Shown one piece after another: positions 1,892 to 19,736 of a DNA stretch of 20,000 bases. The translations under genes were made by a program, and so were the position numbers. The DNA lies in IMG/VR virus record IMGVR_UViG_3300047668_001392. One strand, given 5' to 3'. Below the pieces are notes generated by a model, which worked only from the letters and a program-made list of their open reading frames with translations, ran no database searches and was not told the DNA's origin. Position 1 is the first letter of the stretch; each line of letters starts with the position of its first letter. The DNA is from an uncultured virus (IMG/VR IMGVR_UViG_3300047668_001392). Lineage: Duplodnaviria > Heunggongvirae > Uroviricota > Caudoviricetes > Crassvirales.

Positions 1892-1906
1892 TTGTAAGTT
1901 AAACTA

Positions 1907-4900
1907 ATGCCTAGAGTAAGAAAATATCATGAGGGTGGGAATATCATGCCGCATGATCACCCACACGGACCTGTTAAGAGAGAGTCGTGGATACCAGCTG
2001 GAAATGGAGGGGCAGGTAGTTATAAAAAAATTACTAAAGATTTGTTCCCAGCGGGAAACCGTCCGCAAGCACCCATCTTAGAGCTTCTTAAGCCTAGAGT
2101 CACAACAGTAGATCTAGATTCAAAAGAGTTACAAGAGAGTAATGTATCTGTCTCTAAAGGCCCTAAGTATCCAACTCAGAGGGTAATGAGATACAGTAAT
2201 AAGGTGAGAACTAATCAGATACCTAGCCACGATATGGTTTGGGATAAAAAAAGAAATCAGTACGTTGTAAGATCAATACCTCAAGAAGAAATAGATTATT
2301 ACATAGAAGAGAATAAAGTAGTAAAAAAACCATATGTTGCACCTGTATATCGCAAATATCATGAGGGTGGGAAAGGTCCAGGCTATCCAGGCCATCCACA
2401 TCCTCATCCTTATGTTGCCGTATCTGAAAACACTCAACCTCATGGGTATACTGCACCAGTAATACCTGGCCTTACAGACAATAATCCTTTAATAGGGCTA
2501 ATAGATGCACCTAGAGAGGATCGTTTATCCGAGTTTGACGAGGTAAAGAAAGCGGATTGGAGTACTATACTGGCTAACCCTATGCAGGCGTGGGAGTATA
2601 TCAGCAAGAATGGGTTTACGAGAAGAAACGCTAAGGGTAAACTTGAGTTTACGAGACCAACACAAGCAGAGCTCGATGTTCAGAAGCACAATGTATACGA
2701 TGGTGTTATGTCTATGTTTAACCCTGCGGCCTATGTAGAGGCTGTTAAAGGTTTAGATTCTTCTCTTACTGCGGCTGACGAGGCTTTATTAAGTGGTATA
2801 GAAGATGGAAGAATGTCTCCTGGAGACTTATCTAAGGTTATAGGGAATTTGTCTGATGCGGGAATGCAGGCTTTATTCCTTACTATAGCTCCTACAGCGG
2901 GCAGGACGTTACTTGGGGCAGCAAAAGAGCTTCGTAGACCCGCACTTAATACATTAACTCAAGAGTTTAGAGGTAGTAGGTTGTTAGGGGAAACTAAAGG
3001 TGTAGAACCTGTACCTTCTTCTCCTTTACAGCAGTTAACTGGGGAAAAACAGCTAGCTATTAAACCAGCACCACCTAAAGTAAAAGGGAAGGGGAAAGTA
3101 AAGAAGTACGAGCCTAGTAACCCGTATCAGGATAGCAATGTAGCTAAAACTATTACGGAGGGAGGAAACTGGAGTACAACTAACGTTGGAGTATACCAAT
3201 ACCCATCGTTTATGACGGGCAGTAAGCTAGAGGGTCAAGTATCTGCTAAAGATGGGACTATATCTAGGTCTGTATTAGAGCAGTTAGTAAAGAATAAAAA
3301 CACTAAAGCTAGTGAGGCCTTAGCTGTAGAGAAGATTTTAGGTGGTTTTGATGATAAGAGAGTTCCGTATGAATATTTTAAAGAGGAACTGGCTTTAGGA
3401 ATACACCCTGCGGAGATTATACCTACTTCAGGATTACAGGGCTACGCTAGCACAGGGGTTGAAGCATTAGGATATAAAGTTGTAGGAAACATAAACAATG
3501 CGGGAGCGCTGCCAGAAGGTGGGGTAACTGCAATAACTAACCTTTATAAAGATAAATCTTTAGGGTTAACGAAAGAAGGGGAGAGTCACTTCCCAGACCA
3601 ACCTCATAGCTTCTGGATAAGGAGTATGAGTACTGCAGAAGAACCTAATGTACTAAAAGCTTTAGAGTGGCAAACGGATGTAAAGTCTTTAAAAGACCCT
3701 TCAAAAGGCCTTCCAGGATCTGAAGAGGCTGCGGATTATTATCCTGAAAGAATAGATGAGCGATTTGGTAAAATGTTTAGTTTAGATCAGCAGATTAAAG
3801 TATTTAAAGATGAAATAGGAAATACGAAAAAGAATTTCGGTCCTCTTGAACAAGTTCCAATTGGTTATACAGAGTATTTAGCAAAAATAGAGAAAGGTTT
3901 AGAGATAGCATTAGCCGCCAGATCAAAAGGAGGAGAGGTAAGAATAGCAAAATCAAAATCAAAAGGCCTCCCACTTAAGTTTGTAAACGAGTCCTTATTG
4001 GATGCTGCTAGGCAAGGGAAAGAATACCTAGACGTACCTACAGCAGAAACGGTATTTACTATTGAAGGGTGGACTAAACCTAATGTAATTGAAAGTACAA
4101 AGCAAATCACTAATCAATATAATATACTTAGAGAATATGATAAGTCTTTAATGCAAATAGGCCGAGGAAGCTTTGGTGAGACAGAAGATATAATATCAGA
4201 GATTGAGAGGACACTTTCAATTAACAGTAGCGTAGAGTCATTAATTAATAAAAATGTTAAAGAAAAAGAGGTAATTTACGATCGATTAATCAATAGTATC
4301 GAAAAGAATCAGCCAGTTACCATGGGTATGTTTAGTAAGTTAGGTACAGGTTCGGATTTTGAGGATATGTACCTAGACCTTAGGAGAAAAATAGAAGACC
4401 CTACGTCGCCTCCAGATATTAAAGAGTTTTGGAAAGAACAGGTTATAAAAAATATTAAAAACCTTAAATCAGAAGTTGGAATAAGAGCGAAGCAGGATAT
4501 AACAAAATATAAAGAGGCTCAAAAGAAAGTAGATGAGATAAAAGCTAAAGGATTTGATCTCTCTAAGATAAGTGAGTCTGAGATGTCAGTAACGAAAAAC
4601 TACAGGAACTTCCCTAAGCTATGGAGGAGTGAGTTTGGTACGGATGTTAAGCAAGTAACAGACCAGAAAGGGAATAGCTGGATGCGTGTCAAGATCCCAG
4701 AGAACTTCTATCAAAACGACATATCCCTCCCTTTATCGGAGATTAAGACATATAGAAAAGGTGGAAAAGCATTAAAAGGCCTTATTAAGAAGTATGGGGG
4801 TGGAGGTAGCGTTGGTGGCTGGGGAGCACAAGGGAACTTTAGTACAGAATACAACTCTAAACAGCCTAGCGTAGCGGAATTACCTGATCCGAACTCTATA

Positions 4901-5938
4901 CCTGAGCAGAATGCTCTAGACGCTCTAGTAGAGTCTGGTGAAGAACCTTTAACTGAAGAAGAGAAGAAAAAGCAGAAGAATCAAAAAGCCTTACAAGGGG
5001 CTATGAAAGGGGCGAGTATGGGTATGAGTTTTGGGCCTTGGGGGGCAGCTATAGGCGCGGTTGCTGGAGGTGCGTTAGCGTACTTTGCAAAACAAGGCGC
5101 GAAAATAAGGAAACTTTATAAGGGGGGAGGAGAGGTATCTGAAGGAAAACCTGACGTAAAGGATTTATTACATATGCTGAAGCGGTTTGGTAAAGAACCT
5201 AGGCAGCCGCAGGGATCATGGAATATGCCTCCTGATAAAGAAGGGTGGGTTCCTCGACATGACGATATATTTAAATATCTAGCTTCTCGTGATATAGATA
5301 CTAAAGATGATGAGATAGCTAAAGCGTATATAAAGCCTGGATCAGTAGCTGGTGCGGGGTTTGCAGATGGATATGATGCTTCTGCGTATTCGGAAAAAGG
5401 TCGGTATGTAGACCCTACAAAACCATCTAAGTTTGACAACGTAAGTGGATTAGCATACCCTAACTCTAAAGGCCAGAGGATTATATTAGCTAGTACTCAG
5501 TTGAAGAACCCTACTACTAGAATAGAAGAAGCTGTGCACAGCCTTCAGCAGCAGAGATTCCTTGATCCTTCTGTATCCGACTCTAAGATAGGAGGGAATA
5601 AACGTCGATTATATAGGATGCTAAAAAAGCAACCGTGGCTTGATGAGTTATCACCCGATCTGAAAAAAACGCTTACTAAAGGTAATTATGCTCTAAAAGG
5701 AGGGGGAAGTACGTCTGAATTCGAAGCGAAACTTATCGCAGCCAAGATGACTATGATACACGAAGGAGTCCTTCCTGAGGATGGAAATGTATCGGATAAA
5801 GACCTAGAGGCTATAAAGCAATGGTATGAAGACCGTAAAAACAAGACGGGTGAGACGCTATGGGAGTCAGTTTTATTCCAGGATTTCAGCGACACAAAGT
5901 ATAGAGATGAGATGTTAAGTACTCTAAATAAAATATAA
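1907..5938 (+). CDS. Large multidomain putative virion cargo/ejection protein (1343 aa)
   Basis: Long intact ORF; five [KR]x[YF]xxGG tags; glycine zipper (GAMKGASMGMSFGPWGAAIGAVAGG); HF..R..LEWQTD domain; degenerate zincin-like EEAVH..Q / EFEAK. Confidence 0.75.
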   Translation: MPRVRKYHEGGNIMPHDHPHGPVKRESWIPAGNGGAGSYKKITKDLFPAGNRPQAPILELLKPRVTTVDLDSKELQESNVSVSKGPKYPTQRVMRYSNKVRTNQIPSHDMVWDKKRNQYVVRSIPQEEIDYYIEENKVVKKPYVAPVYRKYHEGGKGPGYPGHPHPHPYVAVSENTQPHGYTAPVIPGLTDNNPLIGLIDAPREDRLSEFDEVKKADWSTILANPMQAWEYISKNGFTRRNAKGKLEFTRPTQAELDVQKHNVYDGVMSMFNPAAYVEAVKGLDSSLTAADEALLSGIEDGRMSPGDLSKVIGNLSDAGMQALFLTIAPTAGRTLLGAAKELRRPALNTLTQEFRGSRLLGETKGVEPVPSSPLQQLTGEKQLAIKPAPPKVKGKGKVKKYEPSNPYQDSNVAKTITEGGNWSTTNVGVYQYPSFMTGSKLEGQVSAKDGTISRSVLEQLVKNKNTKASEALAVEKILGGFDDKRVPYEYFKEELALGIHPAEIIPTSGLQGYASTGVEALGYKVVGNINNAGALPEGGVTAITNLYKDKSLGLTKEGESHFPDQPHSFWIRSMSTAEEPNVLKALEWQTDVKSLKDPSKGLPGSEEAADYYPERIDERFGKMFSLDQQIKVFKDEIGNTKKNFGPLEQVPIGYTEYLAKIEKGLEIALAARSKGGEVRIAKSKSKGLPLKFVNESLLDAARQGKEYLDVPTAETVFTIEGWTKPNVIESTKQITNQYNILREYDKSLMQIGRGSFGETEDIISEIERTLSINSSVESLINKNVKEKEVIYDRLINSIEKNQPVTMGMFSKLGTGSDFEDMYLDLRRKIEDPTSPPDIKEFWKEQVIKNIKNLKSEVGIRAKQDITKYKEAQKKVDEIKAKGFDLSKISESEMSVTKNYRNFPKLWRSEFGTDVKQVTDQKGNSWMRVKIPENFYQNDISLPLSEIKTYRKGGKALKGLIKKYGGGGSVGGWGAQGNFSTEYNSKQPSVAELPDPNSIPEQNALDALVESGEEPLTEEEKKKQKNQKALQGAMKGASMGMSFGPWGAAIGAVAGGALAYFAKQGAKIRKLYKGGGEVSEGKPDVKDLLHMLKRFGKEPRQPQGSWNMPPDKEGWVPRHDDIFKYLASRDIDTKDDEIAKAYIKPGSVAGAGFADGYDASAYSEKGRYVDPTKPSKFDNVSGLAYPNSKGQRIILASTQLKNPTTRIEEAVHSLQQQRFLDPSVSDSKIGGNKRRLYRMLKKQPWLDELSPDLKKTLTKGNYALKGGGSTSEFEAKLIAAKMTMIHEGVLPEDGNVSDKDLEAIKQWYEDRKNKTGETLWESVLFQDFSDTKYRDEMLSTLNKI

Positions 5939-6600
5939 TGGAAATACGTAGAAAGTTTCAACCAGGTATGAAAGTAAGAAGATTCCACAATGGAGGGAAA
6001 GGTCCAGGCCACCCACATGGAGATCTTACCACAGCTAAATTAGACAGCATATTATCTTCTAATGTAGAGGGCGCTATCTTTGAATTCTCTCAATTTAGAG
6101 ACCTTGTAGGTAGTCACGAAGGTGCATCTGGAGGTTATTCTGCTCGCCAAATAGGGGGTGGTCCAGGAAGAGGAATGTATCAATTTGATGAAGCCTCCGC
6201 TCAAACAGCTTATAACAGGCTAAAAACTATAGCTAGCGACAGAGGTTATGAGATACCTATATTAACGTCTGAGGACTTTAAGAATATGGATAAGGTCTCC
6301 CCTGAGATACAAGACCTCCTGTTTACGGCTAATATTGCAAAATCTCCAAATACATCTATAAGTACTATATTGACTGATAAATCACAATGGGATAATCAAT
6401 GGCTTGACGGTCATTGGAGAGGTAAAGATGAAGATAGAGAAGTAAGACGCGCTTCTTTCCAACACACTCAAGATAATTTTCCTGTAAAAACCACAGAAAA
6501 AAATCCATCAATTAACTCAGCATTTGGGAATATGTTCCCCGATGAAAATACTGTGACTCCCGATAAAAATAACTTTCAATATATACAAGCAGAATTTTAA
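5938..6600 (+). CDS. Lysozyme-fold muramidase/lytic transglycosylase, probably virion-associated
   Basis: SHEG..GGYSA...GRGMYQF...SPEIQDLL pattern of lysozyme-like families; N-terminal RRFHNGG tag; TAATG coupling to upstream gene. Confidence 0.65.
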   Translation: MEIRRKFQPGMKVRRFHNGGKGPGHPHGDLTTAKLDSILSSNVEGAIFEFSQFRDLVGSHEGASGGYSARQIGGGPGRGMYQFDEASAQTAYNRLKTIASDRGYEIPILTSEDFKNMDKVSPEIQDLLFTANIAKSPNTSISTILTDKSQWDNQWLDGHWRGKDEDREVRRASFQHTQDNFPVKTTEKNPSINSAFGNMFPDENTVTPDKNNFQYIQAEF

Positions 6601-6602
6601 AT

Positions 6603-6749
6603 ATGACTAAACCTAAAAACGATTTCGACCTACCTCTTCCGTCTTTCCTTGATCAAGTAAAGCTAAAAGAACAAGAGGCAAAAATAGAGTCTGGAGAAAC
6701 GGTATGCAATACGGACTCTCCAGAAGACTGCGAAAGTTGTAGCGGATAA
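6603..6749 (+). CDS. 48-aa protein ending in CNTDSPEDCESCSG (RNR-alpha C-tail-like)
   Basis: Hand-translated ORF filling the gap between two genes; not in ORF track. Confidence 0.75.
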   Translation: MTKPKNDFDLPLPSFLDQVKLKEQEAKIESGETVCNTDSPEDCESCSG

Positions 6750-6754
6750 TATAT

Positions 6755-6762
6755 TATATTTG
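6755..6762 (+). promoter_or_regulatory. Bacteroidota -7 promoter box TATATTTG
   Basis: Intergenic, 16 nt before ATG 6779. Confidence 0.7.
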
Positions 6763-6778
6763 TAAAAAATAAAGAGTT

Positions 6779-7018
6779 ATGCAAATTAGAAAATACAATA
6801 TGGGTGGGCAGATGCAAGAACAGATGCAAGGACCACCACAGCAAGGGGGACCTGAACAGCCTGCTCCAGTTGATGTAAATCAATTATTAGAGATGTTGTC
6901 ACAGATGCCACCCGAAGCAAAGCTTTCTCCTGAGGAGGTAGCTCGATTTATTATGGGGGATCTTCCTATGAATGTACCTCAAGGGCCTCCAATGTCTCAA
7001 GGAGGAGGAATGCAGTAA
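6779..7018 (+). CDS. Small Met/Gln/Pro/Gly-rich protein with RKYNMGG tag
   Basis: Promoter upstream, tight gene packing, shared N-terminal tag. Confidence 0.75.
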   Translation: MQIRKYNMGGQMQEQMQGPPQQGGPEQPAPVDVNQLLEMLSQMPPEAKLSPEEVARFIMGDLPMNVPQGPPMSQGGGMQ

Positions 7019-7021
7019 TAA

Positions 7022-7498
7022 ATGGCTACTTTAAACGTAACTATAACAGAAGAGCTAACTCTTAATGGAGCTGACAGGGGGTCTACAAACACCCTTGCTG
7101 TAGCTTCTGTTACTCAGGTATACCATAGGATCGTTACCTGCCCTGCAAGCCAAGATACTACAGTAGCAACGTTTGCCAGTACAGTAGATGACAGCACAAG
7201 TGCAGCTGGCAGTATAAATGTTGCTGATGTAAAATACGTAAGATTAACAAATCTAGGTACACAGCCTGTAAACTTGTCTTTACAAGTAGGTACAACAGAC
7301 GGTGGAGATGGTGCTGCTGACGAATCGGCTACAATTCTTATTGCAGCTGGAAGAAGTTTTGTTATGGGTGCTACGGCTAACGCTATGGCTGTCAATGACA
7401 CAAATGCAAACATAGACGTTTCAATGCATGAGTTAGAATCACTACTTGTTGATCCAGGATCTAACGCAGTAACCGTAGAAGTATTTATAGCTAGTTAA
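7022..7498 (+). CDS. Putative virion structural protein (beta-rich, Ala/Thr/Val-rich)
   Basis: MATLNVTITEELTLNG start and KYVRLTNL...VEVFIAS pattern, as I recall from small structural proteins of aquatic phages. Confidence 0.6.
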   Translation: MATLNVTITEELTLNGADRGSTNTLAVASVTQVYHRIVTCPASQDTTVATFASTVDDSTSAAGSINVADVKYVRLTNLGTQPVNLSLQVGTTDGGDGAADESATILIAAGRSFVMGATANAMAVNDTNANIDVSMHELESLLVDPGSNAVTVEVFIAS

Positions 7499-7499
7499 G

Positions 7500-8177
7500 A
7501 TGAAACCTATGTATAGGCAATATAAACATGGGGGTTGGCATCCTTTTAAAAAAGACAAAGGGCCAAAACCCGTTTTAAAGATGTCTGAAAGAGAGCCTTC
7601 ATATGGGACTGTATCGCAACAGCTAGGTGATGCTGTTCAATACAGCGGAGGGGATAACAGCGATATTTTAAAGATGTTAGCTTTAACTAAAGAAAAGGAC
7701 CCCTTTCTTTCCGACTATTCAAACGTAAACTTTTCGTTGCCTGGAGAGAAAAACAGCAAGCAATCTGAAATACTCCCTCAATTTAGAGCAGCACGAGATG
7801 GAGATTCAGACAACATTAATTTCTTTAAATTAGATCCAGAGTCTCAAAAGTATGTTAGGAGTAAAATGGGTGGCGGCGATTTATCTGAGATGTTTGGGAG
7901 AGAACTAAAGCCATCTGAAGAAAGATATGTTCGAGGTCAAGTATTTAAAAACCCAGCTTTGTTGTCTTATTTTATGGGGATCGGCGAAGAGCCTGGTAAG
8001 AGAGAGATGAAAAAGTTTAAAGTTCACTCAGGAAAATTTTCTGGGGGCTCTAGAGGCGGAAACGGTACTACAACAGGTGGAGCTGGAAGTAAATCGTTAG
8101 CCAAAGAACAAAGAGGGAATATTTTTAAGAATTTCTTTGCTTGGTGCAAACTAGACGGAACATGTAAAGCAGAATAA
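7500..8177 (+). CDS. Hypothetical protein with RQYKHGG tag
   Basis: 225-aa ORF, tightly packed, shared N-terminal tag. Confidence 0.75.
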   Translation: MKPMYRQYKHGGWHPFKKDKGPKPVLKMSEREPSYGTVSQQLGDAVQYSGGDNSDILKMLALTKEKDPFLSDYSNVNFSLPGEKNSKQSEILPQFRAARDGDSDNINFFKLDPESQKYVRSKMGGGDLSEMFGRELKPSEERYVRGQVFKNPALLSYFMGIGEEPGKREMKKFKVHSGKFSGGSRGGNGTTTGGAGSKSLAKEQRGNIFKNFFAWCKLDGTCKAE

Positions 8178-8180
8178 AAT

Positions 8181-8399
8181 ATGCCAAACGTTATTAAAGG
8201 AAAGAAAAAAAAGAAAGGGAAAACCGTAGACTTCAACCTACCTTACGAGGGAGCGATGGGAAAATCGGTTAATAGGGAGGTAGCAAAAAAAATATGGGGA
8301 AACTCCGCTTCTGCAGACGAACATACTCTAGGATATGAACTAACTAGAGATGCTGACGGGAATTATATAGCGAGGACTAAATTAAGTTCAAAAGCTTAA
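8181..8399 (+). CDS. Small basic hypothetical protein
   Basis: Fills the gap with 3-nt spacers on both sides. Confidence 0.7.
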   Translation: MPNVIKGKKKKKGKTVDFNLPYEGAMGKSVNREVAKKIWGNSASADEHTLGYELTRDADGNYIARTKLSSKA

Positions 8400-8402
8400 A
8401 AA

Positions 8403-8918
8403 ATGAAATTAGAAGTAATTAGATTTAACAAAGGAAAGGATTCAACAAATGGGATACTATTTAATACAACGAATGAAAGAAAATTTTTATGCTATACTCT
8501 CGAAGATGAGAGTCGTACTGAAAAAGTGTGGGGAGAAACTTGTATACCTGAAGGAGAGTATAATCTCGGTCTTCGAACTGTGGGCGGGCTTGATGCCAAA
8601 TACTCTAAAAGGTTTTCTGATATCCATATGGGAATGCTTCATGTACTTGATGTACCTAATTTTAAATATATTCTTATTCATTGCGGTAATACTGACGAAG
8701 ATACTGCTGGATGTCTTCTCTTGGGCGATTCGCAAGAGAACAACAACATCAAAGAAAACGGATTTATAGGGCGGTCTACCCAAGCGTATTTCCGTATCTA
8801 CGAAGACATTGCTAAGGCAATTGAAAGCGGGGAGAAAGTAACTATAACGTACCGAGATTTCGCAACATGCCTTCTTTTATCGCAAGACGACGCGATAAAG
8901 ATGCTTGACGAGTGTTAA
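8403..8918 (+). CDS. DUF5675-family protein (L,D-transpeptidase-like fold, putative endolysin)
   Basis: CYTLED..KVWGETCIPEGEY...DVPNFKYILIHCGNTDEDTAGCLLLG signature. Confidence 0.85.
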   Translation: MKLEVIRFNKGKDSTNGILFNTTNERKFLCYTLEDESRTEKVWGETCIPEGEYNLGLRTVGGLDAKYSKRFSDIHMGMLHVLDVPNFKYILIHCGNTDEDTAGCLLLGDSQENNNIKENGFIGRSTQAYFRIYEDIAKAIESGEKVTITYRDFATCLLLSQDDAIKMLDEC

Positions 8919-8919
8919 G

Positions 8920-8943
8920 AGGGAGTTACCCTTCGAGCTCCCT
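8920..8943. terminator. Possible hairpin at the junction of convergent genes
   Basis: AGGGAG...CTCCCT inverted repeat between/overlapping the converging stops; no U-tract. Confidence 0.3.
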
Positions 8944-9348
8944 ATAGGCTCTCTGTACAAGTAACCTAGCCTTTTGAGTCAAAGCATACCTCACTCTGTA
9001 GTTAAACTTCGTTTCATCTCTAAATAGATGGTCGGCAAAAGTCTTAGACGGAGTAAGTTTATCGAAATGTTTATATAGATAACCCTTTTTTACTAACGGG
9101 TATATAAATCTATTCTGGGTGTTATTCTTATTCATAACTAAGCTTTCTGCTGCGTATTTTATCGTAAAGAACTGAAGGTCATACCCCCAGAAAAGAAACT
9201 CTACATGGGAGAAGTTAATATCGTACTCTTTGTTTACAAAGTGCTTAACAACTTTTAATTTCTTCAGATAGTTCCTGTGGATATATTTCTTATCTTGCAG
9301 TGAGAACTCTCTAAACAGTCTCTTTTTAGGTACTTTACTTTTAGGCAT
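8926..9348 (-). CDS. Putative winged-helix (MarR-like) DNA-binding regulator
   Basis: Basic 140-aa ORF with PLVKKGYL...RVRYALTQKAR wing pattern; only minus-strand gene in the late module. Confidence 0.6.
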   Translation of the reverse strand: MPKSKVPKKRLFREFSLQDKKYIHRNYLKKLKVVKHFVNKEYDINFSHVEFLFWGYDLQFFTIKYAAESLVMNKNNTQNRFIYPLVKKGYLYKHFDKLTPSKTFADHLFRDETKFNYRVRYALTQKARLLVQRAYRELEG

Positions 9349-9364
9349 TAAATAGATTATTATT

Positions 9365-9682
9365 ATGAAAGATATAGCTTTTTTATTAGAAATTCAAAAA
9401 TTAGCTCTAGAAATGGATGATCTTGTTGATAAGTATGACATGAGGGATAGATTTGTTTCTATATTAGTTTCTGGTTTTTTACAAGAAGATGACTACGGGG
9501 AGATGAATATGAACGCTATATATAGTTACCATCTATCTACTATCTTTGAGTTAACGGAGATATTGGATTTTATAAACAATACATTTGAACACGAATTTGA
9601 ATACGATACCCCAGAAACCTTTGAAAACTTCGACTCTGACGTAGATGATTTTCTAGAGAGCCTTGGGATAGATACTGAATAA
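9365..9682 (+). CDS. Highly acidic hypothetical protein
   Basis: 105-aa ORF, Asp/Glu-rich, coupled to the next gene. Confidence 0.7.
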   Translation: MKDIAFLLEIQKLALEMDDLVDKYDMRDRFVSILVSGFLQEDDYGEMNMNAIYSYHLSTIFELTEILDFINNTFEHEFEYDTPETFENFDSDVDDFLESLGIDTE

Positions 9683-9683
9683 A

Positions 9684-9923
9684 ATGGAAGGAATTATTAG
9701 AAAAATTGTGGTTGGAAGAGACCCTAAAGACGGAATGGCTTATTATGTAGGGATGAGAGCAGGAGCAGGGAAAGTAAGTACTATAGTCCAAGACGAAAGA
9801 TATCTAGTTAAATATAGCAAAGACAGATACCTTGTATATATGCAAGATTCAGAAGGTGTTCAGACCTTATGGAAAGCTATAGATAGCATGCCGTGTATGT
9901 TAGAATTTGATTGTAATTTTTAA
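9684..9923 (+). CDS. Conserved Bacteroidota-phage hypothetical protein
   Basis: IIRKIVVG.DPK..M.Y.VG...LWK....MP...EFD pattern recalled near GroES/terminase in such phages. Confidence 0.75.
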   Translation: MEGIIRKIVVGRDPKDGMAYYVGMRAGAGKVSTIVQDERYLVKYSKDRYLVYMQDSEGVQTLWKAIDSMPCMLEFDCNF

Positions 9924-11310: not shown

Positions 11311-11319
11311 CTTTACGGT

Positions 11320-11679: not shown

Positions 11680-12902
11680 ACCTAATACTTTTATTAGCTT
11701 TATGGGCCCCTATTTTATCTGCTCAATGTGATGTAAGCATAAGTAGCTGGGATGCGGCATCAGGGGATATCGTCATTGAGGCTATCAACAGTGAGAACTG
11801 CGGGTGTAATGAGTTTACGTCTGAAGCCAACACCTGCGAGAATAGTGGGAGTCCTTCCGTAAATAATAATACAACTGTATCTCATATAGTCCTGGGACTG
11901 CACGTAGAGGGATTAGATTATAACTGGGGATGCATTTCCGCTACTAATCATCCAGGGTGGACGTTTAAAGCGTTTACTTTATTTGGGAATCAAGTCTTAG
12001 AGAGCGGAGATACATGGAGTGCTAATGTATATGACTCCCCAAGTAGTAATGACTGCTGGGCTGAGATACTATCAAATGATACTTTGTGTACCGAATTGGT
12101 ACTATGGCAGATTAACCTATCTCAAACGGCTACAACAGATAACGGAGGGTGGGCCGTAAACCCTAACGTTGCGGCTCAGACACAGAGTTACCCTGATGTA
12201 GATCTATCTAATAACACTGCGGTTAACTGCGCTCTTCCTGCGTGTGACACAGTGTACGTAGATGTAGAAGTTATTGAATACCTTACTGATACTATAGTAG
12301 AATATGTAGATGTTGAGTGGATAACAATTGACACTTTTTATATTACGCAAGTGGACACATTAGTAGAGTATGTCCAATTACCCCCAGATACTGTACAGGT
12401 AGTTGAGTATGTAAATATTATAGAATACCTATACGATACTATTGTATTAGTAGAAACAGATACTCTTGTTGAGTATGAGTATATCTACTTAACCGATACG
12501 ATGTATGTAGAAACGGTTGTATACGAATACATCTATATTTACAATACAGACACTATAACTGAATTTGTATCTGAGTCTATATATATTGATTGTAATACTG
12601 GAGAGCAGTGCAATCAAACATTCCCGTGTGACGAGGTATCTATTTTTGCCCCTAATGCCGTTACCCCAAACGGGGATGGCTGGAATGATACGTGGATGGT
12701 TATTGCGGACGGAGCTTGTTGGGATCAATGGGAAGTTCGTATTTACAACCGATGGGGTGGGCTAGTGTGGATTAGCGCTTCCTCAATGGATGAGTGGGAT
12801 GCTGACGTAGCTACGGGGGTTTATGTATATACCATAACGGCTCACAGCGCTGTAAATGTTAATGTGTATCAATTTAACGGAACAATAACGGTATTGTATT
12901 AA
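11670..12902 (+). CDS. Secreted protein with gliding-motility-associated (T9SS type B, CHU_C-like) C-terminal domain
   Basis: Signal peptide ending LSA-Q; IFAPNAVTPNGDGWND...IYNRWG...WD...TGVYVY...GTITVL; DT-rich repeat stalk. Confidence 0.85.
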   Translation: MRINLILLLALWAPILSAQCDVSISSWDAASGDIVIEAINSENCGCNEFTSEANTCENSGSPSVNNNTTVSHIVLGLHVEGLDYNWGCISATNHPGWTFKAFTLFGNQVLESGDTWSANVYDSPSSNDCWAEILSNDTLCTELVLWQINLSQTATTDNGGWAVNPNVAAQTQSYPDVDLSNNTAVNCALPACDTVYVDVEVIEYLTDTIVEYVDVEWITIDTFYITQVDTLVEYVQLPPDTVQVVEYVNIIEYLYDTIVLVETDTLVEYEYIYLTDTMYVETVVYEYIYIYNTDTITEFVSESIYIDCNTGEQCNQTFPCDEVSIFAPNAVTPNGDGWNDTWMVIADGACWDQWEVRIYNRWGGLVWISASSMDEWDADVATGVYVYTITAHSAVNVNVYQFNGTITVLY

Positions 12903-12924
12903 TATTTAGTATATTGCAAGAGTT

Positions 12925-13152
12925 ATGAAAGCTATAAAAAGAGATTATAAAAAAGAGTACGCTAAGTACGGATCTAAGCTTAAAGCTAAGCAATATCGTG
13001 CAGAGTTAAATCAAATTAATAGAGAAAAAGGGAATTACGGAAACGGAGATGGACTGGATGAAGCTCATTTTGGAGGAGGTGGAAAAACAAGAAAACAAAA
13101 AGCATCTATAAATAGAGCTAACAATAGGCCTAAAAAAAGGAATAGCGTATAA
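12925..13152 (+). CDS. Small basic HNH-like protein
   Basis: RDYKKEY...RAELN...GDGLDEAH...ASINRA resembles minimal beta-beta-alpha-Me proteins of podoviruses. Confidence 0.55.
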   Translation: MKAIKRDYKKEYAKYGSKLKAKQYRAELNQINREKGNYGNGDGLDEAHFGGGGKTRKQKASINRANNRPKKRNSV

Positions 13153-13176
13153 GCTATTAAATTTAATTTATATATA

Positions 13177-13386
13177 ATGAAATATTTACTTATCTTCATG
13201 TCTGCTATATTACTAGCGTCATGTTCTGTTCAAAACAAACACAGAAGGTCTCAAGTGAGACATTACAATCAATGCTGGTGTTTAGACCCCTGGAATGGTG
13301 GTGCTGAATGGTGTTGTGATGGACCAGCGCCAAAATACATGGCCCCATACAAACACTCTAAAGGTTACATTAGAGCTAAATTTTAA
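13177..13386 (+). CDS. Small Cys-rich lipoprotein
   Basis: MKYLLIFMSAILLASC lipobox (LASC). Confidence 0.7.
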   Translation: MKYLLIFMSAILLASCSVQNKHRRSQVRHYNQCWCLDPWNGGAEWCCDGPAPKYMAPYKHSKGYIRAKF

Positions 13387-13390
13387 TAAG

Positions 13391-13579
13391 ATGGCAGAGT
13401 ATAAATGTGAATGCAGCGATGACGTTGTAGATAAATCAGGTGTAACAATAAGATATATTGAGGGGGAAGGGGTAATACATGACGTAAAGTGCGAAAAATG
13501 TGAGAAGTACATGGATTTAGCTAACCCAAAATCTGGTGCGCCTGGTTTTCGATCTAATAGATATGGTCAGACATTTTGA
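13391..13579 (+). CDS. Zinc-ribbon (FmdB-like) protein, 62 aa
   Basis: In-frame ATG 13391 avoids overlap with the lipoprotein gene; MAEYKCEC...CEKC. Confidence 0.65.
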   Translation: MAEYKCECSDDVVDKSGVTIRYIEGEGVIHDVKCEKCEKYMDLANPKSGAPGFRSNRYGQTF

Positions 13580-15693
13580 GTATACTCCTAGATGTTAAAG
13601 ATTATGAAGACCCAGCTGTTAAGATTTGTCCCAACGGTACGGAAGGTGAGCTTATCGAACTCGGTGGGTTACTCATTTGTCTTCCAAAAAGGCCTCCGAA
13701 GAAAGAAATTTCAGGATATAAAGAACCAAACTCTATGCAAATGTGGGGAAGGGTACTTATGCCGCAGGAATTGTCTCGTATTCGTTCTATGGATGAGTGG
13801 GCGGAAATGCCACGGGAGTTTAGAGCGAGGTTTCGTCCATATATCGAGGAAGAGTTTAGGCGTAGGCGTGAAGGTTTTTGGTTTTATAACAACGGTACAG
13901 CTACATATATTACGGGGCGTCACTACATGATGATACAGTGGACCAAGATGGACATTGGTTACCCGTACTTCCTGAACTTTCAAAGAGATATCTTCTTGCA
14001 TTTAGCTGCGTGTGAAATCGATCCTAGATGTATAGGGCAGCTATATACTAAGTGTCGTCGTAGTGGGTACACAAATATGTGCTCATCTGTACTTGTAGAC
14101 GAAGGGACTCAAGTAAAAGATAAACTTATGGGTATACAGTCTAAGACTGGTAAAGACGCCCAAGAAAATATATTTATGAAGAAGGTAGTCTTTATGTTTA
14201 GAAACTATCCTTTCTTTTTTAAACCTATTCAAGACGGTACAACTAATCCTCGTATGGAGTTAGCTTTTAGGGAGCCGTCGAAAAGAATAACCAAGAAGAA
14301 TAAAACCTCTCAAATGGGGGAAGCTTTGAATACGGTTATCAACTGGAAAAACACAACAAACAATGCATATGACGGTGAAAAGCTACACCTGTTGTATTTA
14401 GATGAAGCAGGAAAATGGGAAAGACCTACAGACATAAGAGACGCTTGGAGGATTCAGAGGACTTGTTTGATCGTCGGAAGAAAAATCGTGGGGAAGGCAA
14501 TGGTCGGAAGCACGGTAAATCCAATGGACAAAGGAGGGAGTCAGTACAAGGATCTATGGGAGGACTCAGATCCTTTGGAGAGGAACGCGAATGGGAGGAC
14601 TAGAACTGGTCTATATAGACTTTTTATCCCTGCATATAACTCTTTAGAAGGATTCTTTGATAAGTTTGGCTACCCTGTAGTTGACGACCCTATAGAGACT
14701 ATAGAAGGTATAGACAATGAGTATATCTATACAGGAGCTAAGACATTCTTAAAGAATGAAAGAGACTCTTTAAAAAACGATGCGTCGGAATTAAACGAGG
14801 TGGTAAGGCAGTTCCCGTTTACCGAAGATGAGGCCTTTAGAGATAGTATAGAGGGGAGTGTATTTAATATCGGTCAGATTTACGAGCAGATAGAACATAA
14901 TGACGAGCTTTTCCCAAACCCCGTTGTAGCGGGAAATTTTGTATGGAAAGGGGGGGTAAAAGATACTGAGGTAGTATTTAGCCCAAATGCTCAAGGTAGA
15001 TTTAAAATTGCTTGGATGCCTCCTCCTGACTTTAGAAACCAAAAGAAAACAGAAAGAGGTAAGCGAGTAGCCCCTCATTCAGACTTTGGCGTAGGAGGGG
15101 TTGACTCATATGACCTTGACGCTACCGTAGATGGCAGAGGATCTAAAGGTTCTTTGCATTTATATAACAAGTTCCATATGGAGCACCCTTGTAACATGTT
15201 TGTTTTGGAGTATGCCTCAAGGCCACCTTTAGCTAAAATATTCTACGAAGACGTTTTAATGGCCGCTGTATTTTATGGTTACCCTATATTAATAGAGAAT
15301 AATAAATATGGTATAGCGAGGCACTTTGAAGCTAGAGGGTATGACGGGTACCTAATGGATAGACCTAAACACTTAGTTAGCGCTAGTGGGATGAAGTCTA
15401 AAACAAAAGGTATACCATCTAACTCTCAAGACGTTATCCAGGCTCACGCACACGCTATAGAATCCTTTATACATGACCATGTAGGAGTGAATAGAGAAAC
15501 GGGAGATGTTGGGAAAATGTATTTTAATAAAACGCTAGAGGATTGGATAGGTTACAAAATAGACGATAGAACTAAATATGACCTTACAATTAGCTCTGGA
15601 TTGGCTCTACTAGGAGCGCAAAAAGCCAAGCCAAAAAAGACTTCTGACTTGTCTGAAAAACGATTCTTTAGGAGATATCAAGTAATCGGATGA
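13576..15693 (+). CDS. terL: Terminase large subunit
   Basis: Walker A KCRRSGYT, Walker B LLYLDEAGK, motif III GST, nuclease GGVDSY...IENN...DLTISSG; TTG start overlaps upstream TGA. Confidence 0.93.
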   Translation: MSILLDVKDYEDPAVKICPNGTEGELIELGGLLICLPKRPPKKEISGYKEPNSMQMWGRVLMPQELSRIRSMDEWAEMPREFRARFRPYIEEEFRRRREGFWFYNNGTATYITGRHYMMIQWTKMDIGYPYFLNFQRDIFLHLAACEIDPRCIGQLYTKCRRSGYTNMCSSVLVDEGTQVKDKLMGIQSKTGKDAQENIFMKKVVFMFRNYPFFFKPIQDGTTNPRMELAFREPSKRITKKNKTSQMGEALNTVINWKNTTNNAYDGEKLHLLYLDEAGKWERPTDIRDAWRIQRTCLIVGRKIVGKAMVGSTVNPMDKGGSQYKDLWEDSDPLERNANGRTRTGLYRLFIPAYNSLEGFFDKFGYPVVDDPIETIEGIDNEYIYTGAKTFLKNERDSLKNDASELNEVVRQFPFTEDEAFRDSIEGSVFNIGQIYEQIEHNDELFPNPVVAGNFVWKGGVKDTEVVFSPNAQGRFKIAWMPPPDFRNQKKTERGKRVAPHSDFGVGGVDSYDLDATVDGRGSKGSLHLYNKFHMEHPCNMFVLEYASRPPLAKIFYEDVLMAAVFYGYPILIENNKYGIARHFEARGYDGYLMDRPKHLVSASGMKSKTKGIPSNSQDVIQAHAHAIESFIHDHVGVNRETGDVGKMYFNKTLEDWIGYKIDDRTKYDLTISSGLALLGAQKAKPKKTSDLSEKRFFRRYQVIG

Positions 15694-15698
15694 TTTAC

Positions 15699-15706
15699 TA
15701 TATTTG
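15699..15706 (+). promoter_or_regulatory. Bacteroidota -7 promoter box TATATTTG
   Basis: Intergenic between terL and portal. Confidence 0.7.
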
Positions 15707-15732
15707 CTAAATAGAAATACCATATCTTAAGG

Positions 15733-18171
15733 ATGTATAATAACGATAATAAAAGTAAGCAGGGTTTCCCCGATCCATTAGAATCTACGGAATTAAAACA
15801 GGGGAAAGAATATGGTATTCAGTATGCTAAAGCTATTGAGTCTCAATGGGGGAAAACTACGGATGACTCTTCTTTGGTAGGCAAAAGGAATAAAACCTTT
15901 GAAAAAGACCGAGATTACGCTATTGGAGTTCAGGATACAAGTATATATAAACAACTATTAAGCTCTCTCAATCCAAATAAAGCGGACGGAGCTTTGTTGA
16001 ATATGGATTACACCCCAGTTCCTATCCTACCTAAATTTGTAAGAATTGTAGTTAATAAGATACTGTCTGTAAATCCCTATCCTAATTTAGAAGCAGTAGA
16101 CCCATTGTCTTCTTCTGAAAAGAATGAAAAAAAGAAGAAGATTTTAATGCAAGTTGAATCTAAGGGTAAGCTTAAAGAGCTAAAAGATAAGACTGGTGTT
16201 GTTTTAGATATGGATCCAGATTCCATTCCAGACACTCCAGAAGAAGCAGAAATTTTATTCGACACTAATATTAAAACAGACGGAGAGATATCTGCTCAGC
16301 TAGGGGCGGAACTTACTCTCACTTGGAATAACTTTGTAGACAACACTTTCCGTAGGTGTGTAAACGACTTAGCTACCCTAGGTATGTCTGTAGTAAAAAG
16401 ATCTAACGATCCCAACGAAGGCATTAAAACATCCTACGTAGATCCGTGTATGTTTATACATAGCTACACAGAAGACCCTAATTTTGAAGACCTTATATAC
16501 GCTGGGCATATAAAAAAGATCTCTATACAAGAGTTAAAGCGTTTGGCTGGAGAGGAGTTGAATGAGGAGGATTATAAAAAGATTGCTGAAAAATCTAAAG
16601 GAAGAAATGGAAATGATTCTAATAAGTATAACAAATCTAACTATAGTCACGCTTTAGGTAAAACCTCATTTGGCTATGACGACTATATGGTTGAAGTTTT
16701 AGATTTTGAGTTTATTTCTGTTGATTGTATTCACTTTGAAGAAAAAGAAAACAAACACGGTAACACAGGGTTTTATTTTAAAGGCTTTGAAGCTCAACCT
16801 AATAAGAACAGCGTTTTCGAGCGCACTCCTCATAAATTAGAGGTGTCTACTGTTTATGGAGGCAGCTATGTATTGGGTTGTGATTATCTATTTGGATATG
16901 GCAAAACTAAGAACGTACCTAAAAACATACACGATATATCTAAAGCTACATTATCTTACTCTGTAACGGCGACTAATATTCGTAACATGATGCCTAAATC
17001 TATGGTAAATAGCTGTGTAGGCTTTGCCGATATGCTACAGCTCACTCACTTAAAGATACAGCAGGCTATAGCAAAAGCTAAGCCAGATGGTTTGATCATA
17101 GATATAGAGGGTTTAGAAAATGTACAGTTAGGGAAAGGTGGGGAGTTACAACCTTTAGACCTTCACGATATATACGAGCAGACAGGTGTTTTCTACTACA
17201 GGAGTAAGAACCCCGAAGGTGGATTTCAAAACCCTCCTGTTAGAGAAATAAGCAACAGCATAAGAAACATTAATGAACTTGTAGGTTTATACAACCATTA
17301 CTTAGGTTTAATAAGAGACACAACGGGTATTAATGAAGCAATGGACGCATCTTCCCCTAAAGGTGATGCTTTAGTTGGTGTTCAAAATCAGGCTATAGCT
17401 GCGGGTAACAACGCTATATATGATATAACAAATGCCGCTATGGTTTTGTTTAAAAAAGTATGTGAGGATATAGTTAAATGTATTCAAATTATACCTCCTG
17501 AATCCGTTCTATATAAAATATACGAGAACGCTATCGGAGACACGAATATGGAGGCTTTAGCTTCCTTCAGAGACCTTCCTATGTATAACTTCGGGGTTGT
17601 TGTTGTAAAGGATATGGAGGAGAAAGATAAGGCCTACCTAGAGCAAAACATCCAGATGGCTCTCCAACAGCAAGAGTTAGATTTAGAAGACGCTATAGCC
17701 GTTAGAGGTTTAAAAGATATTAATCAAGCGGAAAGGCTTCTTGTTGTTAGGCGTAAAAAAAGAATGGCTATGAAGCAGCAGATGGCTCAGCAGAGCTCTG
17801 AGCAGCAAGCTAAAATGCAGGGTCAAATAGCTCAGCAGGCACAACAAGCTAAAATGGCTGAAATGCAAGCGCAGGGTCAAATTGACACTCAAAAAATTCA
17901 AATGCAAGCGCAGGTCGATATGAAGATGGCGCAAATGAGGCATGAGTTTACTAAAGAAATTGAGATGCTTAAAGCTCAGGCTACGCTTGGCTTTAAAGAA
18001 GATGACAAAGAGTTTAAAGAAAAGCTTGAGGTTTTAAAAGAGACCCGTAAAGATGACAGGCTAGACCAACAGACTTCAGACCAAAGTAAACTTATATCCC
18101 AAAGGCAAGGCAAAAGAGAAGAGCTACCTGAAGGGTCAAACAAACTAATTAATGCATTATTAAACGAATAA
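15733..18171 (+). CDS. Portal protein
   Basis: 812 aa directly after terL; PVPILPKFV, IRDTTGINEA motifs; long Gln/Met/Ala-rich C-terminal coiled coil as in podovirus portals. Confidence 0.88.
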   Translation: MYNNDNKSKQGFPDPLESTELKQGKEYGIQYAKAIESQWGKTTDDSSLVGKRNKTFEKDRDYAIGVQDTSIYKQLLSSLNPNKADGALLNMDYTPVPILPKFVRIVVNKILSVNPYPNLEAVDPLSSSEKNEKKKKILMQVESKGKLKELKDKTGVVLDMDPDSIPDTPEEAEILFDTNIKTDGEISAQLGAELTLTWNNFVDNTFRRCVNDLATLGMSVVKRSNDPNEGIKTSYVDPCMFIHSYTEDPNFEDLIYAGHIKKISIQELKRLAGEELNEEDYKKIAEKSKGRNGNDSNKYNKSNYSHALGKTSFGYDDYMVEVLDFEFISVDCIHFEEKENKHGNTGFYFKGFEAQPNKNSVFERTPHKLEVSTVYGGSYVLGCDYLFGYGKTKNVPKNIHDISKATLSYSVTATNIRNMMPKSMVNSCVGFADMLQLTHLKIQQAIAKAKPDGLIIDIEGLENVQLGKGGELQPLDLHDIYEQTGVFYYRSKNPEGGFQNPPVREISNSIRNINELVGLYNHYLGLIRDTTGINEAMDASSPKGDALVGVQNQAIAAGNNAIYDITNAAMVLFKKVCEDIVKCIQIIPPESVLYKIYENAIGDTNMEALASFRDLPMYNFGVVVVKDMEEKDKAYLEQNIQMALQQQELDLEDAIAVRGLKDINQAERLLVVRRKKRMAMKQQMAQQSSEQQAKMQGQIAQQAQQAKMAEMQAQGQIDTQKIQMQAQVDMKMAQMRHEFTKEIEMLKAQATLGFKEDDKEFKEKLEVLKETRKDDRLDQQTSDQSKLISQRQGKREELPEGSNKLINALLNE

Positions 18172-18172
18172 T

Positions 18173-18667
18173 ATGGCTAGTTCAGTAAATTTAGATACAT
18201 CAGATGTCTTAAATATAACGTGCAGGAAAGGGGACACCTTTTCTATTACGCTTACTCTAAAAGATTCTGCGGGTACTGCCCTTACGTTATCTACTAGTGA
18301 ATATACTTTTTTAATGCAGGTTAAATCTACGAGAGTAGCTAAAAGAGGAAGACCTAGTATATCAACTTTAATTTTAGGGACGCCTAATGCCGCAGCAAAA
18401 GATCAGGTCCGAGTTAAGTCTAAGTCTAGGATTACGCCACCACCTGTATCGTCTGGTGGAAAAACATTTGAAACCCCTACTGTTGACGATAGCGGAAATG
18501 TAACTATTGAAGCTTCTGCTGAAACTATGAGTAAAGTTCCTTCTGGAAGTTACTCTTACGACCTTCAGTACATCCTTCCTAACGCTTCTGGTTTGGATAC
18601 TCACAGGACTGTTTTAAGGGGAAAGTTTTCTGTTAACGCAGATATAACGGAAGCATTTGAAAGATAA
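18173..18667 (+). CDS. Putative tail/baseplate Ig-like (BppU-N-like) protein
   Basis: LNITCRKGDTF...YSYDLQ...LRGKFSV..DIT pattern. Confidence 0.6.
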   Translation: MASSVNLDTSDVLNITCRKGDTFSITLTLKDSAGTALTLSTSEYTFLMQVKSTRVAKRGRPSISTLILGTPNAAAKDQVRVKSKSRITPPPVSSGGKTFETPTVDDSGNVTIEASAETMSKVPSGSYSYDLQYILPNASGLDTHRTVLRGKFSVNADITEAFER

Positions 18668-18837
18668 TGAGTGTATCTGTAAACACAACACCTGGTAATA
18701 CTGTTAGCGTCTCTGTTAATGGTAACACATCTGTTAGTTTTATAAAAAAAAATTCTTTCGTTTCCGCAACTTTACCTTCTGCATCTTCAACAATATTAAC
18801 TGAAAAATCCCTTAAATCAATACAAGTGGTTGTTTAA
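18667..18837 (+). CDS. 56-aa Ser/Val/Thr-rich protein
   Basis: Hand-translated MSVSVNTTPGNTVSVSVNGNTSVSF...IQVVV; TAATG coupling; not in ORF track. Confidence 0.65.
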   Translation: MSVSVNTTPGNTVSVSVNGNTSVSFIKKNSFVSATLPSASSTILTEKSLKSIQVVV

Positions 18838-18848
18838 CAACATGTAAA

Positions 18849-19169
18849 ATGAAAGCCTGTAAATGCGAACATAAAGAAAATGAATACAAGAAAGGAGGTA
18901 AGACTCCTGCTTGGACACGCAAAGCAGGAAAGAATCCAAAAGGCGGATTAAACGCTAAGGGTGTAGCTTCTTACAGGAAGGCAAATCCAGGCAGTAAGCT
19001 TAAGATGGCTGTAACAGGGAAAGTTAAAGCGGGGTCTAAGGCTGCAAAGAGACGTAAATCTTTTTGCGCTAGAATGAGTGGAATGAAAGGACCTATGAAA
19101 AAGCCAAATGGCAAACCTACAAGGAAGGCTTTGTCTTTACGTAAATGGCGTTGTAGAAAAAAGAAGTAA
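18849..19169 (+). CDS. Highly basic conserved phage protein (DUF6321-like)
   Basis: PAWTRKAGKNPKGGLNAKG...KRRKSFCARM...LSLRKWRC; also carries EYKKGG tag. Confidence 0.75.
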   Translation: MKACKCEHKENEYKKGGKTPAWTRKAGKNPKGGLNAKGVASYRKANPGSKLKMAVTGKVKAGSKAAKRRKSFCARMSGMKGPMKKPNGKPTRKALSLRKWRCRKKK

Positions 19170-19537
19170 TGAAAGCAATTAAAAAAGTAATTAAGAAATT
19201 TAATCACGGAGGTAAGCATAGCGAAAAAGAACCTAGGGTTAGCCTATCCTCCACCAATTCGAGCACTTCGGAGGCCACTACGAGAACAAATAGGAGAGGC
19301 AAAAAAAAGACAACTACATCTTCCAGTAACACTAGAGTTAGCACTCATAAATATCCTGATGGAGAGAAACCAAATACCACTACTACATCTGTAAACACCG
19401 TGGTTTTTAAGCCAAAGATTTTTGGATCAGGGACGAGAAGGAGAGGCACAAGCACTACTGGCACTGAAGTTCTTAACGAGGACGGGACTCAAAGAAGCCA
19501 TACTTACAGTAAGAAAAAAGTAAAAAGACCTAAATAA
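19169..19537 (+). CDS. Basic Ser/Thr-rich protein with KKFNHGG tag
   Basis: TAATG coupling on both sides; shared tag and NEDGT. Confidence 0.75.
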   Translation: MKAIKKVIKKFNHGGKHSEKEPRVSLSSTNSSTSEATTRTNRRGKKKTTTSSSNTRVSTHKYPDGEKPNTTTTSVNTVVFKPKIFGSGTRRRGTSTTGTEVLNEDGTQRSHTYSKKKVKRPK

Positions 19538-19719: not shown

Positions 19720-19736
19720 GGCAACGTAATAATAGT

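Follow-up and report, generated by a model that had tools for sequence, protein, structure and literature searches.

Tagged proteins in the window

The DNA we have analyzed (the window) is a stretch of 20,000 nucleotides from the uncultured virus IMGVR_UViG_3300047668_001392, corresponding to the beginning of the late region of a podophage. Several of its late proteins contain a short common peptide, which we call the tag. Selection maintains this peptide, in the general form basic-[Y/F/M]-x-x-G-G, at both termini and at module joints of fast-changing late proteins, and it is also maintained in the first ejection protein. The features concerned are shown in Table 1.

Table 1. Tagged proteins of the window, their parts and some untagged neighbors. 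P numbers are proteins of related phages.
Feature	Position	Strand	Remarks
1343 amino acid modular (polyvalent-type) protein, five tags	1907..5938	+	Modules shuffled at tags among relatives
N-terminal tag, aromatic at residue 7, behind basic leader	1919..1939	+	
First module, about residues 40–148	2024..2350	+	Also stand-alone, C-terminal, or inside other proteins
Internal tag, joint of modules 1 and 2	2351..2371	+	P0027 starts here; P0025 continues into the module at residue 947
Tandem internal tags (4745–4765 and 4787–4807), basic spacer	4745..4807	+	
Glycine-zipper hydrophobic segment, residues 1018–1069	4958..5113	+	Weak match to phrog_6056 "internal virion protein" (E 1.9e-5)
Internal tag ahead of C-terminal module	5111..5131	+	
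C-terminal module, about residues 1108–1343	5228..5935	+	Also in shorter proteins
220 amino acid protein, disordered tagged leader, then lysozyme-like fold (residues 29–187)	5938..6600	+	Structure model
Degenerate copy (5950–5970) and tag (5977–5997)	5950..5997	+	Same leader on unrelated SLT proteins P0020–P0023
79 amino acid Gln/Pro/Met-rich protein, tag 6788–6808	6779..7018	+	
225 amino acid protein, no assigned family, tag 7515–7535	7500..8177	+	10/15 family members N-tagged
Terminase large subunit and portal, untagged	13576..18171	+	Place the phage near Pervagoviridae, Pachyviridae and Elemovirus
106 amino acid basic DUF6321 protein, variant tag 18879–18899	18849..19169	+	Loose motif near N-terminus in 8/8 family members
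122 amino acid basic Ser/Thr-rich protein, tag 19193–19213	19169..19537	+	
60 amino acid basic protein, untagged	19537..19719	+	4/16 family members tagged

Nine copies match the strict pattern [KR]-x-[YF]-x-x-G-G proposed in a first-pass annotation of the window, all of them in frame on the + strand: five in the 1343 amino acid protein and one each in the proteins of 220, 79, 225 and 122 amino acids. The variant in the 106 amino acid protein and the degenerate copy at 5950 are also present. A tenth match in the six-frame translation, at 6919, is out of frame and contains a stop. The annotation spoke of six tagged proteins: Five of them have the strict pattern, while the sixth, of 106 amino acids, has only the variant. 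The first copy is indeed N-terminal in all six, with its aromatic residue at positions 7, 16, 6, 8, 13 and 11, and it is likewise correct that the terminase large subunit, portal, GroES-like, HNH and DUF5675 proteins have no N-terminal copy.

The abundance of the tag was compared with 2000 within-protein shuffles of the 28 genes of the window (5974 amino acids). The nine strict copies compare with 0.37 expected (maximum 3), the five proteins tagged in their first 20 residues with 0.041 (maximum 2), and the six proteins with a loose N-terminal [YF]xxGG with 0.225. The pattern was chosen on the window, so tests on relatives weigh more. The 1343 and 220 amino acid proteins have in common a longer leader, including the tag and a His/Pro-rich stretch; their tags are therefore not independent. 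An internal look-alike is found in the major capsid protein of all five genomes examined, which we take as structural or due to chance.

The types of cargo suggested for the tag are supported: a lysozyme-like fold, a glycine-zipper segment matching an internal virion protein family, and small basic proteins. Among the structures aligned to the model of the 220 amino acid protein with VIA-align, the top 21 rows are mostly of the lysozyme superfamily (lysozymes, chitinases and transglycosylases), with middling Z scores of 5.1–6.7 and root-mean-square deviations of 3.6–4.8; Foldseek gave no match at E 0.001. Its family has an invariant Glu61 at the end of helix 50–61, and the model suggests that this protein is probably a muralytic enzyme. 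The model shows its leader as disordered (pLDDT under 50), and the aromatic residue and both glycines of the tag are at least 90% conserved in the family. As for the 1343 amino acid protein, glycine-zipper matches are also found in relatives, and relatives have an HExxH module in the place of its C-terminal module. The window version has no intact HExxH and no score against that profile (E 0.2). The DUF6321 domain of the 106 amino acid protein also occurs as one module among others in larger phage proteins.

Distribution of the tag in related genomes

The window and 176 related loci contain 2222 distinct complete open reading frames (ORFs), obtained with a simple ORF picker which gives approximate starts, and these form 573 families. 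The pattern used for them, [K/R at -1 or -2]-[Y/F/M]-x-x-G-G, was fixed after viewing the logo of the copies. The enrichment also holds in this larger set: 61 of the 573 families are tagged in their first 25 residues, against 1.7 after shuffling (maximum 7 in 200), and 34 of these 61 families are singletons. An N-terminal tag is absent from the core families of head, tail and packaging proteins. N-tagged ORFs are 17 of the 242 on the late strand of five long records (5/59, 7/54, 1/43, 3/55 and 1/31) and none of the 132 on the opposite strand; these records are related, and the counts are not independent trials. No N-tagged proteins are found in four named relatives: Cellulophaga phages phi38:1 (whole genome, 98 ORFs) and phi13:2 (65 ORFs of 48 kb), Flavobacterium phage elemoA (57 ORFs of 48 kb) and a spring metagenome phage (50 ORFs of 50 kb).

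We have found 231 distinct copies, of which 130 are N-terminal, 92 internal and 9 C-terminal, always in the same direction. In the N-terminal leaders, the median position of the aromatic residue is 7 and the mean net charge is +3.0; none of the 61 is hydrophobic or resembles a signal peptide. Most C-terminal copies have a basic tail behind them, and at either end the tag stands between a short basic peptide and the body of the protein. Nine of the 47 N-tagged families of at least 100 amino acids have tags at both ends, while 11 of 234 other families have only a C-terminal tag. Almost any residue, including proline, is accepted at the two middle positions. Two Met/Gly-rich proteins (L089:8420-8938 and L094:4737-5573) consist of almost nothing but tandem tags, with 6–8 copies 7–9 residues apart.

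All four glycine codons are used in these copies at about their genome frequency, and there are 213 different 15-base codings. A motif acting at the DNA level is ruled out, as the codons are free. It could still be argued that the tag is due to chance or composition: The pattern was chosen post hoc, Lys/Gly-rich proteins inflate the number of matches, and the capsid protein has a look-alike. Against this, both shuffles keep composition and fall far short of the observed counts, and all strict six-frame matches but one are in a coding frame. We consider that chance, composition or a DNA element read as peptide has a negligible probability. The motif is a real, selected, lineage-wide peptide. 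No description of it was found in the literature, where motif strings are hard to search and which was covered mostly outside subscription papers and bioRxiv supplements. New features include the tag in a non-crAss lineage, its absence in four named relatives, its use at both ends, a clue to the cutting register, its presence in phi14:2 g070 and a gel re-analysis.

Tags and module joints

Internal tags are found at the boundaries of homology: 73 of 121 are within 15 residues of a breakpoint, against 31.6 for random positions (53 of 88 against 19.5 when one protein per family is used). In some cases, exact deletions from tag to tag can be recognized: P0027 begins at the second tag of the 1343 amino acid protein, while P0025 passes directly from this second tag to the tandem pair at residue 947. 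The leader of the 220 amino acid protein is also found on unrelated SLT bodies. A second form of joint, with Ala at the aromatic position and often a single Gly, appears in relatives P0029, P0036 and P0050, and in the window at about 5084–5098, just before the 5111 tag.

The first module gives a clue to the register. We have listed 22 proteins which contain it: In seven of eight stand-alone copies it ends in Phe followed by the stop codon, and in 11 fusions this Phe is the aromatic residue of the tag; the remaining three end otherwise. Two other modules stop at offsets of -1 and of -1 to +3 from the aromatic residue, each compared with one fusion. The stand-alone copies are related to each other, so these data amount to about three observations, not thirty.

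The tag might be only a hinge or recombination joint, an ancestral flexible linker spread by shuffling, with charge or folded docking domains responsible for loading. Tags do mark breakpoints, one family may include both tagged and untagged members, and crAss001 gp45 and phi14:2 g070, described below, hold a folded portal-binding domain which would be able to load them. On the other hand, many copies are located at residues 6–8 or ten residues from the C-terminus, where a hinge would be useless. Besides, the aromatic residue and both glycines are conserved while codons and middle residues vary, and with 213 different codings for 231 copies there is little DNA identity for recombination. We consider this explanation improbable.

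Tags in virion proteins

The first gene after the tail genes, the canonical position of the first ejection protein, is covered by G002, a longer record nearly identical to the window. It codes for a glycine-zipper N-terminal part, a tag and a conserved C-terminal domain, and in 84 of 86 homologues a loose motif is present within 90 residues before the core of this domain. In phi38:1, elemoA, phi13:2 and the spring phage, the gene at this position, matched by position and composition only (13–16% identity, no hidden Markov model match), has neither the tag nor the domain. The tag and this module thus seem to come together, as judged from four negatives.

Two cultured crAss-like phages allow a comparison with virion data. 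In crAss001, gp45 has variant copies at about eight places, mostly of the forms x-A-[F/Y]-G-G or A-x-x-G-G, which do not match the basic-aromatic pattern. This protein was detected in virions by mass spectrometry (MS), and two pieces of it are resolved in the structure, 214–245 in the tail and 425–552 (C1) at the portal (PMC10172136). Both resolved pieces are located between tag copies. The other example is phi14:2 g070, annotated from virion tandem MS, which has a basic leader, a tag, a C1-like domain (E 3e-9), a second tag, an HExxH module, a third tag and a second HExxH module. The HExxH profile of the window lineage matches it (E 1.9e-5 among 7 targets). The suggestion that the tag loads cargo is supported to this extent: Tagged proteins are components of the virion in these two phages.

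The domain after the tag in the ejection protein of our lineage resembles C1 by eye, with a similar His/Asn/Gly-Glu pattern, and formal comparisons have not confirmed this likeness. No Pfam match was found in five homologues or in the G002 protein, hmmsearch in both directions and hhalign were not significant (probability 2.8%, shallow alignments), tblastn gave no match in GenBank phages, and a low-confidence model (pTM 0.39) had no fold match to C1 or to lambda gpH with VIA-align or Foldseek. A predicted complex with portal residues 1–690 scored 0.00 twice and has not been used as evidence.

One might also suppose that the tag is read in the infected cell, as a site on late, DNA-binding or host-takeover proteins which a host or phage protein binds or modifies. 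The accessory cluster is remote from the ejection genes, and many of the tagged proteins, besides being small and basic, have no known family. Nevertheless, the tag is present in the ejection protein and in the MS-confirmed virion proteins of crAss001 and phi14:2, and for muralytic domains lacking a signal peptide, virion cargo is the most sensible role. This explanation appears quite improbable. We believe that the tag is probably read during head assembly or ejection.

Proposed loading and processing of tagged proteins

We suggest that the tag could be a signal which loads internal cargo into the virion and is then trimmed. The basic peptide and the tag would form a handle taking unrelated proteins into the assembling head by means of the acidic scaffold, the portal or DNA. 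A protease might then cut at the tag, most likely right after its first (aromatic) residue, that is, before Gly-Gly, which would remove the handles and free the modules of long proteins for ejection. Candidates for this protease would be an HExxH module borne by the cargo or a host peptidase. For this load-then-trim scheme as a whole we see nearly an even chance.

In crAss001, the density of C1 starts at A425, includes F426-G427-G428 and runs to 552. Since it continues through G428, cleavage at or after Gly-Gly did not take place in this copy; the density is compatible with cleavage one residue earlier, or with simple disorder. The cleavage of the adenovirus and African swine fever virus (ASFV) type, at or after Gly-Gly, which had been suggested for the tag, is thus contradicted by the one copy with a structure, which is in crAss001 C1 and not in the phage of the window.

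We have also re-analyzed a published gel of crAss001 virions, using the matrix-assisted laser desorption/ionization (MALDI) peak lists of 13 bands in the source data of PMC6235969 (supplement 8, parts 70–74). Band sizes were deduced from order and identity, not from figure labels. Fingerprinting recovers the expected capsid, gp36, gp22, gp23, gp25, gp26, gp44, gp47, gp49 and gp50. The portal (93 kDa, 12 copies) gives 6 of 38 peptides in band 5, while gp45 (90.8 kDa, 12 copies) gives 0–2 of 26 peptides per band, and 0–1 in bands 5–9. The missing full-length gp45 fits processing into pieces too small to be cut out of the gel.

HExxH modules are common in tagged relatives. HExxH zincins have been predicted to process polyvalent proteins (PMC5512222), and a similar processing has been proposed for phi14:2 gp65 (10.1101/2020.03.07.982082). 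Other candidates were less successful: The DUF5675 protein is unlikely as tag protease, since G004 and G005 are tagged and lack it, and a conserved 450 amino acid late protein showed no catalytic pattern. Neither PMC11972413 nor 10.1101/2022.12.01.518664 contains usable cleavage data.

Several results speak against loading followed by trimming. Some families mix tagged and untagged members (3/10, 4/16 and 10/15 tagged), and four basic proteins of the window (108, 72, 75 and 60 amino acids) have no tag. In crAss001 gp45, an xxGG at 444–448 is inside the resolved domain and uncut. At the C1 site, Asn takes the place of the aromatic residue in the first position, and the register of this site is comparable only by aligning Gly-Gly; Bayfield et al. 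treat gp45 as one continuous chain. In the gel, the untagged gp46 (60 kDa) is equally missing and only visible bands had been cut out, which makes the absence of gp45 unspecific and the test weak. A semi-tryptic search of the MALDI lists around all Gly-Gly of gp45 gave 22 matches, scattered over the bands of other proteins, which we take as chance. A joint that is never cut would give module ends beside the tag just as well, and the stand-alone copies are interrelated. No protease was recognized by Pfam and PHROG scans of the late proteins of the window and G002, many of which have no family, while some small ones were not scanned; in particular, these scans gave no match to a cysteine protease of the adenovirus/ASFV clan. 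G005 has tags and no late HExxH protein. Two further features were looked for, apart from these points: A start with M-x-x-G-G, which would mimic a cut product, is found in only one of the 2222 proteins, and C-terminal aromatic residues are not enriched in tagged families (2/57, against 72/516 in the others).

Some of these data would suit a docking motif which is not cut and is bound by the portal, the scaffold or a loading chaperone, with several copies raising avidity and each module keeping its own tag. The portal-bound C1 segment opens with the tag residues A425–G428 in ordered density, no protease was found in the scans, and the middle positions are almost free, including Pro. The tandem arrays of 6–8 tags at 7–9 residue spacing, with no module between them (172 amino acids in G003, 278 in G005), are appropriate for multivalent binding. 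Nevertheless, uncut docking gives no reason for the short basic peptides set apart by tags at both ends nor, as a weak point, for the missing full-length gp45, and neither profiles nor folds reveal a significant resemblance between C1 and the domain after the tag in our lineage. We regard uncut docking as rather unlikely, although it comes close to the load-then-trim scheme.

Genome context and other features

To judge from its genes, the phage of the window is an uncultured marine podophage of about 61 kb, of the Bacteroidota type and akin to Pervagoviridae and Pachyviridae, not a crAssphage. Its terminase and portal have as nearest named kin the Flavobacterium elemo phages, Cellulophaga phages phi38:1 and phi13:2 and the spring metagenome phage, with up to 49% identity for the terminase and about 25–30% for the portal. 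None of the 87 records matching the portal is crAss-like, and its capsid, portal and ejection proteins have no match in crAss001. The combination looked for as a mark of Crassvirales, a crAss-type portal and capsid plus three virion RNA polymerase proteins, was not found. The host is presumably a member of Bacteroidota, as suggested by the named relatives and by a type IX secretion signal domain in the window.

The longer context comes from records G001 and G002, which are 100% identical to the window over 15,925 bases (1–15925) and 10,054 bases (9947–20000); G002 extends 41 kb beyond. Combined, they cover about 61 kb, with late genes on one strand and early genes on the opposite one. The late strand codes for a scaffold-like acidic protein, capsid, tail, three ejection-position genes and holin. 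A single 2208 amino acid protein follows two smaller ejection genes in G002 (L085:2463-9089, G002 34463–41089). It has a DUF3293/SAM-lyase-like domain at 885–955, which is a possible injected anti-restriction activity; a 3694 amino acid protein of elemoA is also annotated as DUF3293.

Other features of the region may be mentioned. A 14 nucleotide direct repeat is found four times, at 436–820 and 1287–1300, in the non-coding gap between early and late genes; one pair is partly palindromic, and the repeats are possibly promoter, operator or origin sites. Two proteins at 11320–12902 have starts resembling signal peptides, and one of them has a type IX secretion C-terminal domain (CHU_C): They appear to be phage-encoded cell-surface proteins, exchanged among relatives. 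Thr/Ala-rich proteins (7022–7498 and L083:9818-11791), conserved in the lineage and not found in the named kin, are probably capsid decoration; one family has four tandem paralogues after the portal. The DUF5675 protein (8403–8918) matches a crAss001 protein (E 7e-17), is probably an endolysin and is absent in G004 and G005. In G005 its place is occupied by a gene (L094:6155-6625) which we take to be M15-like, from sequence likeness. Finally, an acidic 105 amino acid protein (9365–9682) has 64 homologues in the loci and is absent from the named untagged relatives. It was considered as a partner for the basic leaders and is only a candidate, with no Atlas lead (score 0.75).

Significance of the tag

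Little is known of the way in which podophages select and load the proteins they eject, and the only short loading signals we have found in the literature are those of T4 and P1. If our proposal is correct, a seven-residue tag at either end or between modules would explain the swapping of payloads in an abundant marine lineage, injected proteins could be recognized in metagenomes by their pattern, and the tag might be used to load chosen proteins into phage particles. It would also give an exact prediction for two cultured phages (crAss001 gp45 and phi14:2 g070).

A more general scheme can be imagined, a plug-in code common to unrelated Bacteroidota podophages. Gaining a tag at either end would ensure head loading and release by one cut after the aromatic residue, by an enzyme which is not a known prohead protease. 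The code would travel with the tagged docking module of the first ejection protein. Lambda gpH might also be cleaved at such a site. We present this scheme as a speculation, unlikely to be correct as a whole.

Comparison with known systems

In adenovirus and ASFV, a viral cysteine protease cuts at or after Gly-Gly, freeing basic peptides and polyprotein modules inside the particle. The Gly-Gly sites are similar to those of the tag, but this cut register is excluded for the C1 copy and the scans described above revealed no such enzyme.

A precedent, which makes a host enzyme possible for the tag, is P22 gp7, also a first ejection protein, whose 20 N-terminal residues are removed by the host oligopeptidase A, according to PMC4992974 and a RefSeq note. 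A basic leader is lost just upstream of Lys-Gly-Gly; unlike the tag, this is a single site in a single protein, cut after Glu20, one residue before Gly-Gly, and before assembly. The accessible part of PMC13434306, which deals with N4, does not discuss such a motif.

The tape measure protein gpH of lambda (L184:143-2704) is cleaved in a glycine-rich region which holds two loose copies of the tag, F-A-T-G-G (733) and Y-A-T-G-G (778). A piece of about 14 kDa is cut off from this protein, and both the site and the protease are stated to be unknown in a 2025 paper (PMC12617516); the tag offers a candidate for this site. A cut after Phe733 would free 12.5 kDa. In contrast with the tagged proteins, gpH is a tail protein and has no profile match to either post-tag domain, so we consider this link as a lead only.

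The arrangement in crAss001 (C1/gp45, PF25725, PDB 7QOG chain M) and phi14:2 (g069/g070) is the same as in the tagged phages: a first ejection protein after the tail genes, with a glycine-zipper N-terminal part, repeated xxGG at segment ends and a tag before the C-terminal domain. In the window lineage the form of the motif is different from that of crAss001 C1, and the post-tag domains have no significant match. The crAss001 structural paper (PMC10172136) mentions neither the motif nor cleavage (no matches for "cleav").

The polyvalent proteins described by Iyer et al. (2017, PMC5512222) are likewise long late proteins assembled from several shuffled domains, among them ART-PolyVal, lysozyme and HExxH modules. 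Shuffled domains are found here too, with ART-PolyVal above the curated cut-off in relative P0035 and SLT in L139, although the 1343 amino acid protein of the window has no curated domain match. The differences are that no junction motif is mentioned in the part of that paper we have seen, and that here small stand-alone proteins have the same tag.

P1 DarB, a large polyvalent cargo, has a short N-terminal packaging signal and is loaded through the Dar complex (PMC9024508). This is a single protein, and no motif common to dozens of families is reported in the part of that study available to us.

A further analogy, already suggested by the first-pass annotation, is with the internal proteins of T4. 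Their capsid targeting sequence (CTS), which is said to have been described by Mullaney and Black in 1996, is removed by the phage prohead protease after Glu. No prohead protease was found in our phage by the scans described above. The analogy is valid for a common short N-terminal peptide on unrelated late proteins, as in the N-tagged families above, but the tag is also C-terminal and internal, while the CTS has another sequence and is only N-terminal. The CTS is found on diverse, fast-changing internal proteins and is the basis for loading foreign proteins (PMC3012670). In summary, the tag works like the capsid targeting signals of T4 and P1, but it is not a member of this type, since it is used at both ends and inside proteins.

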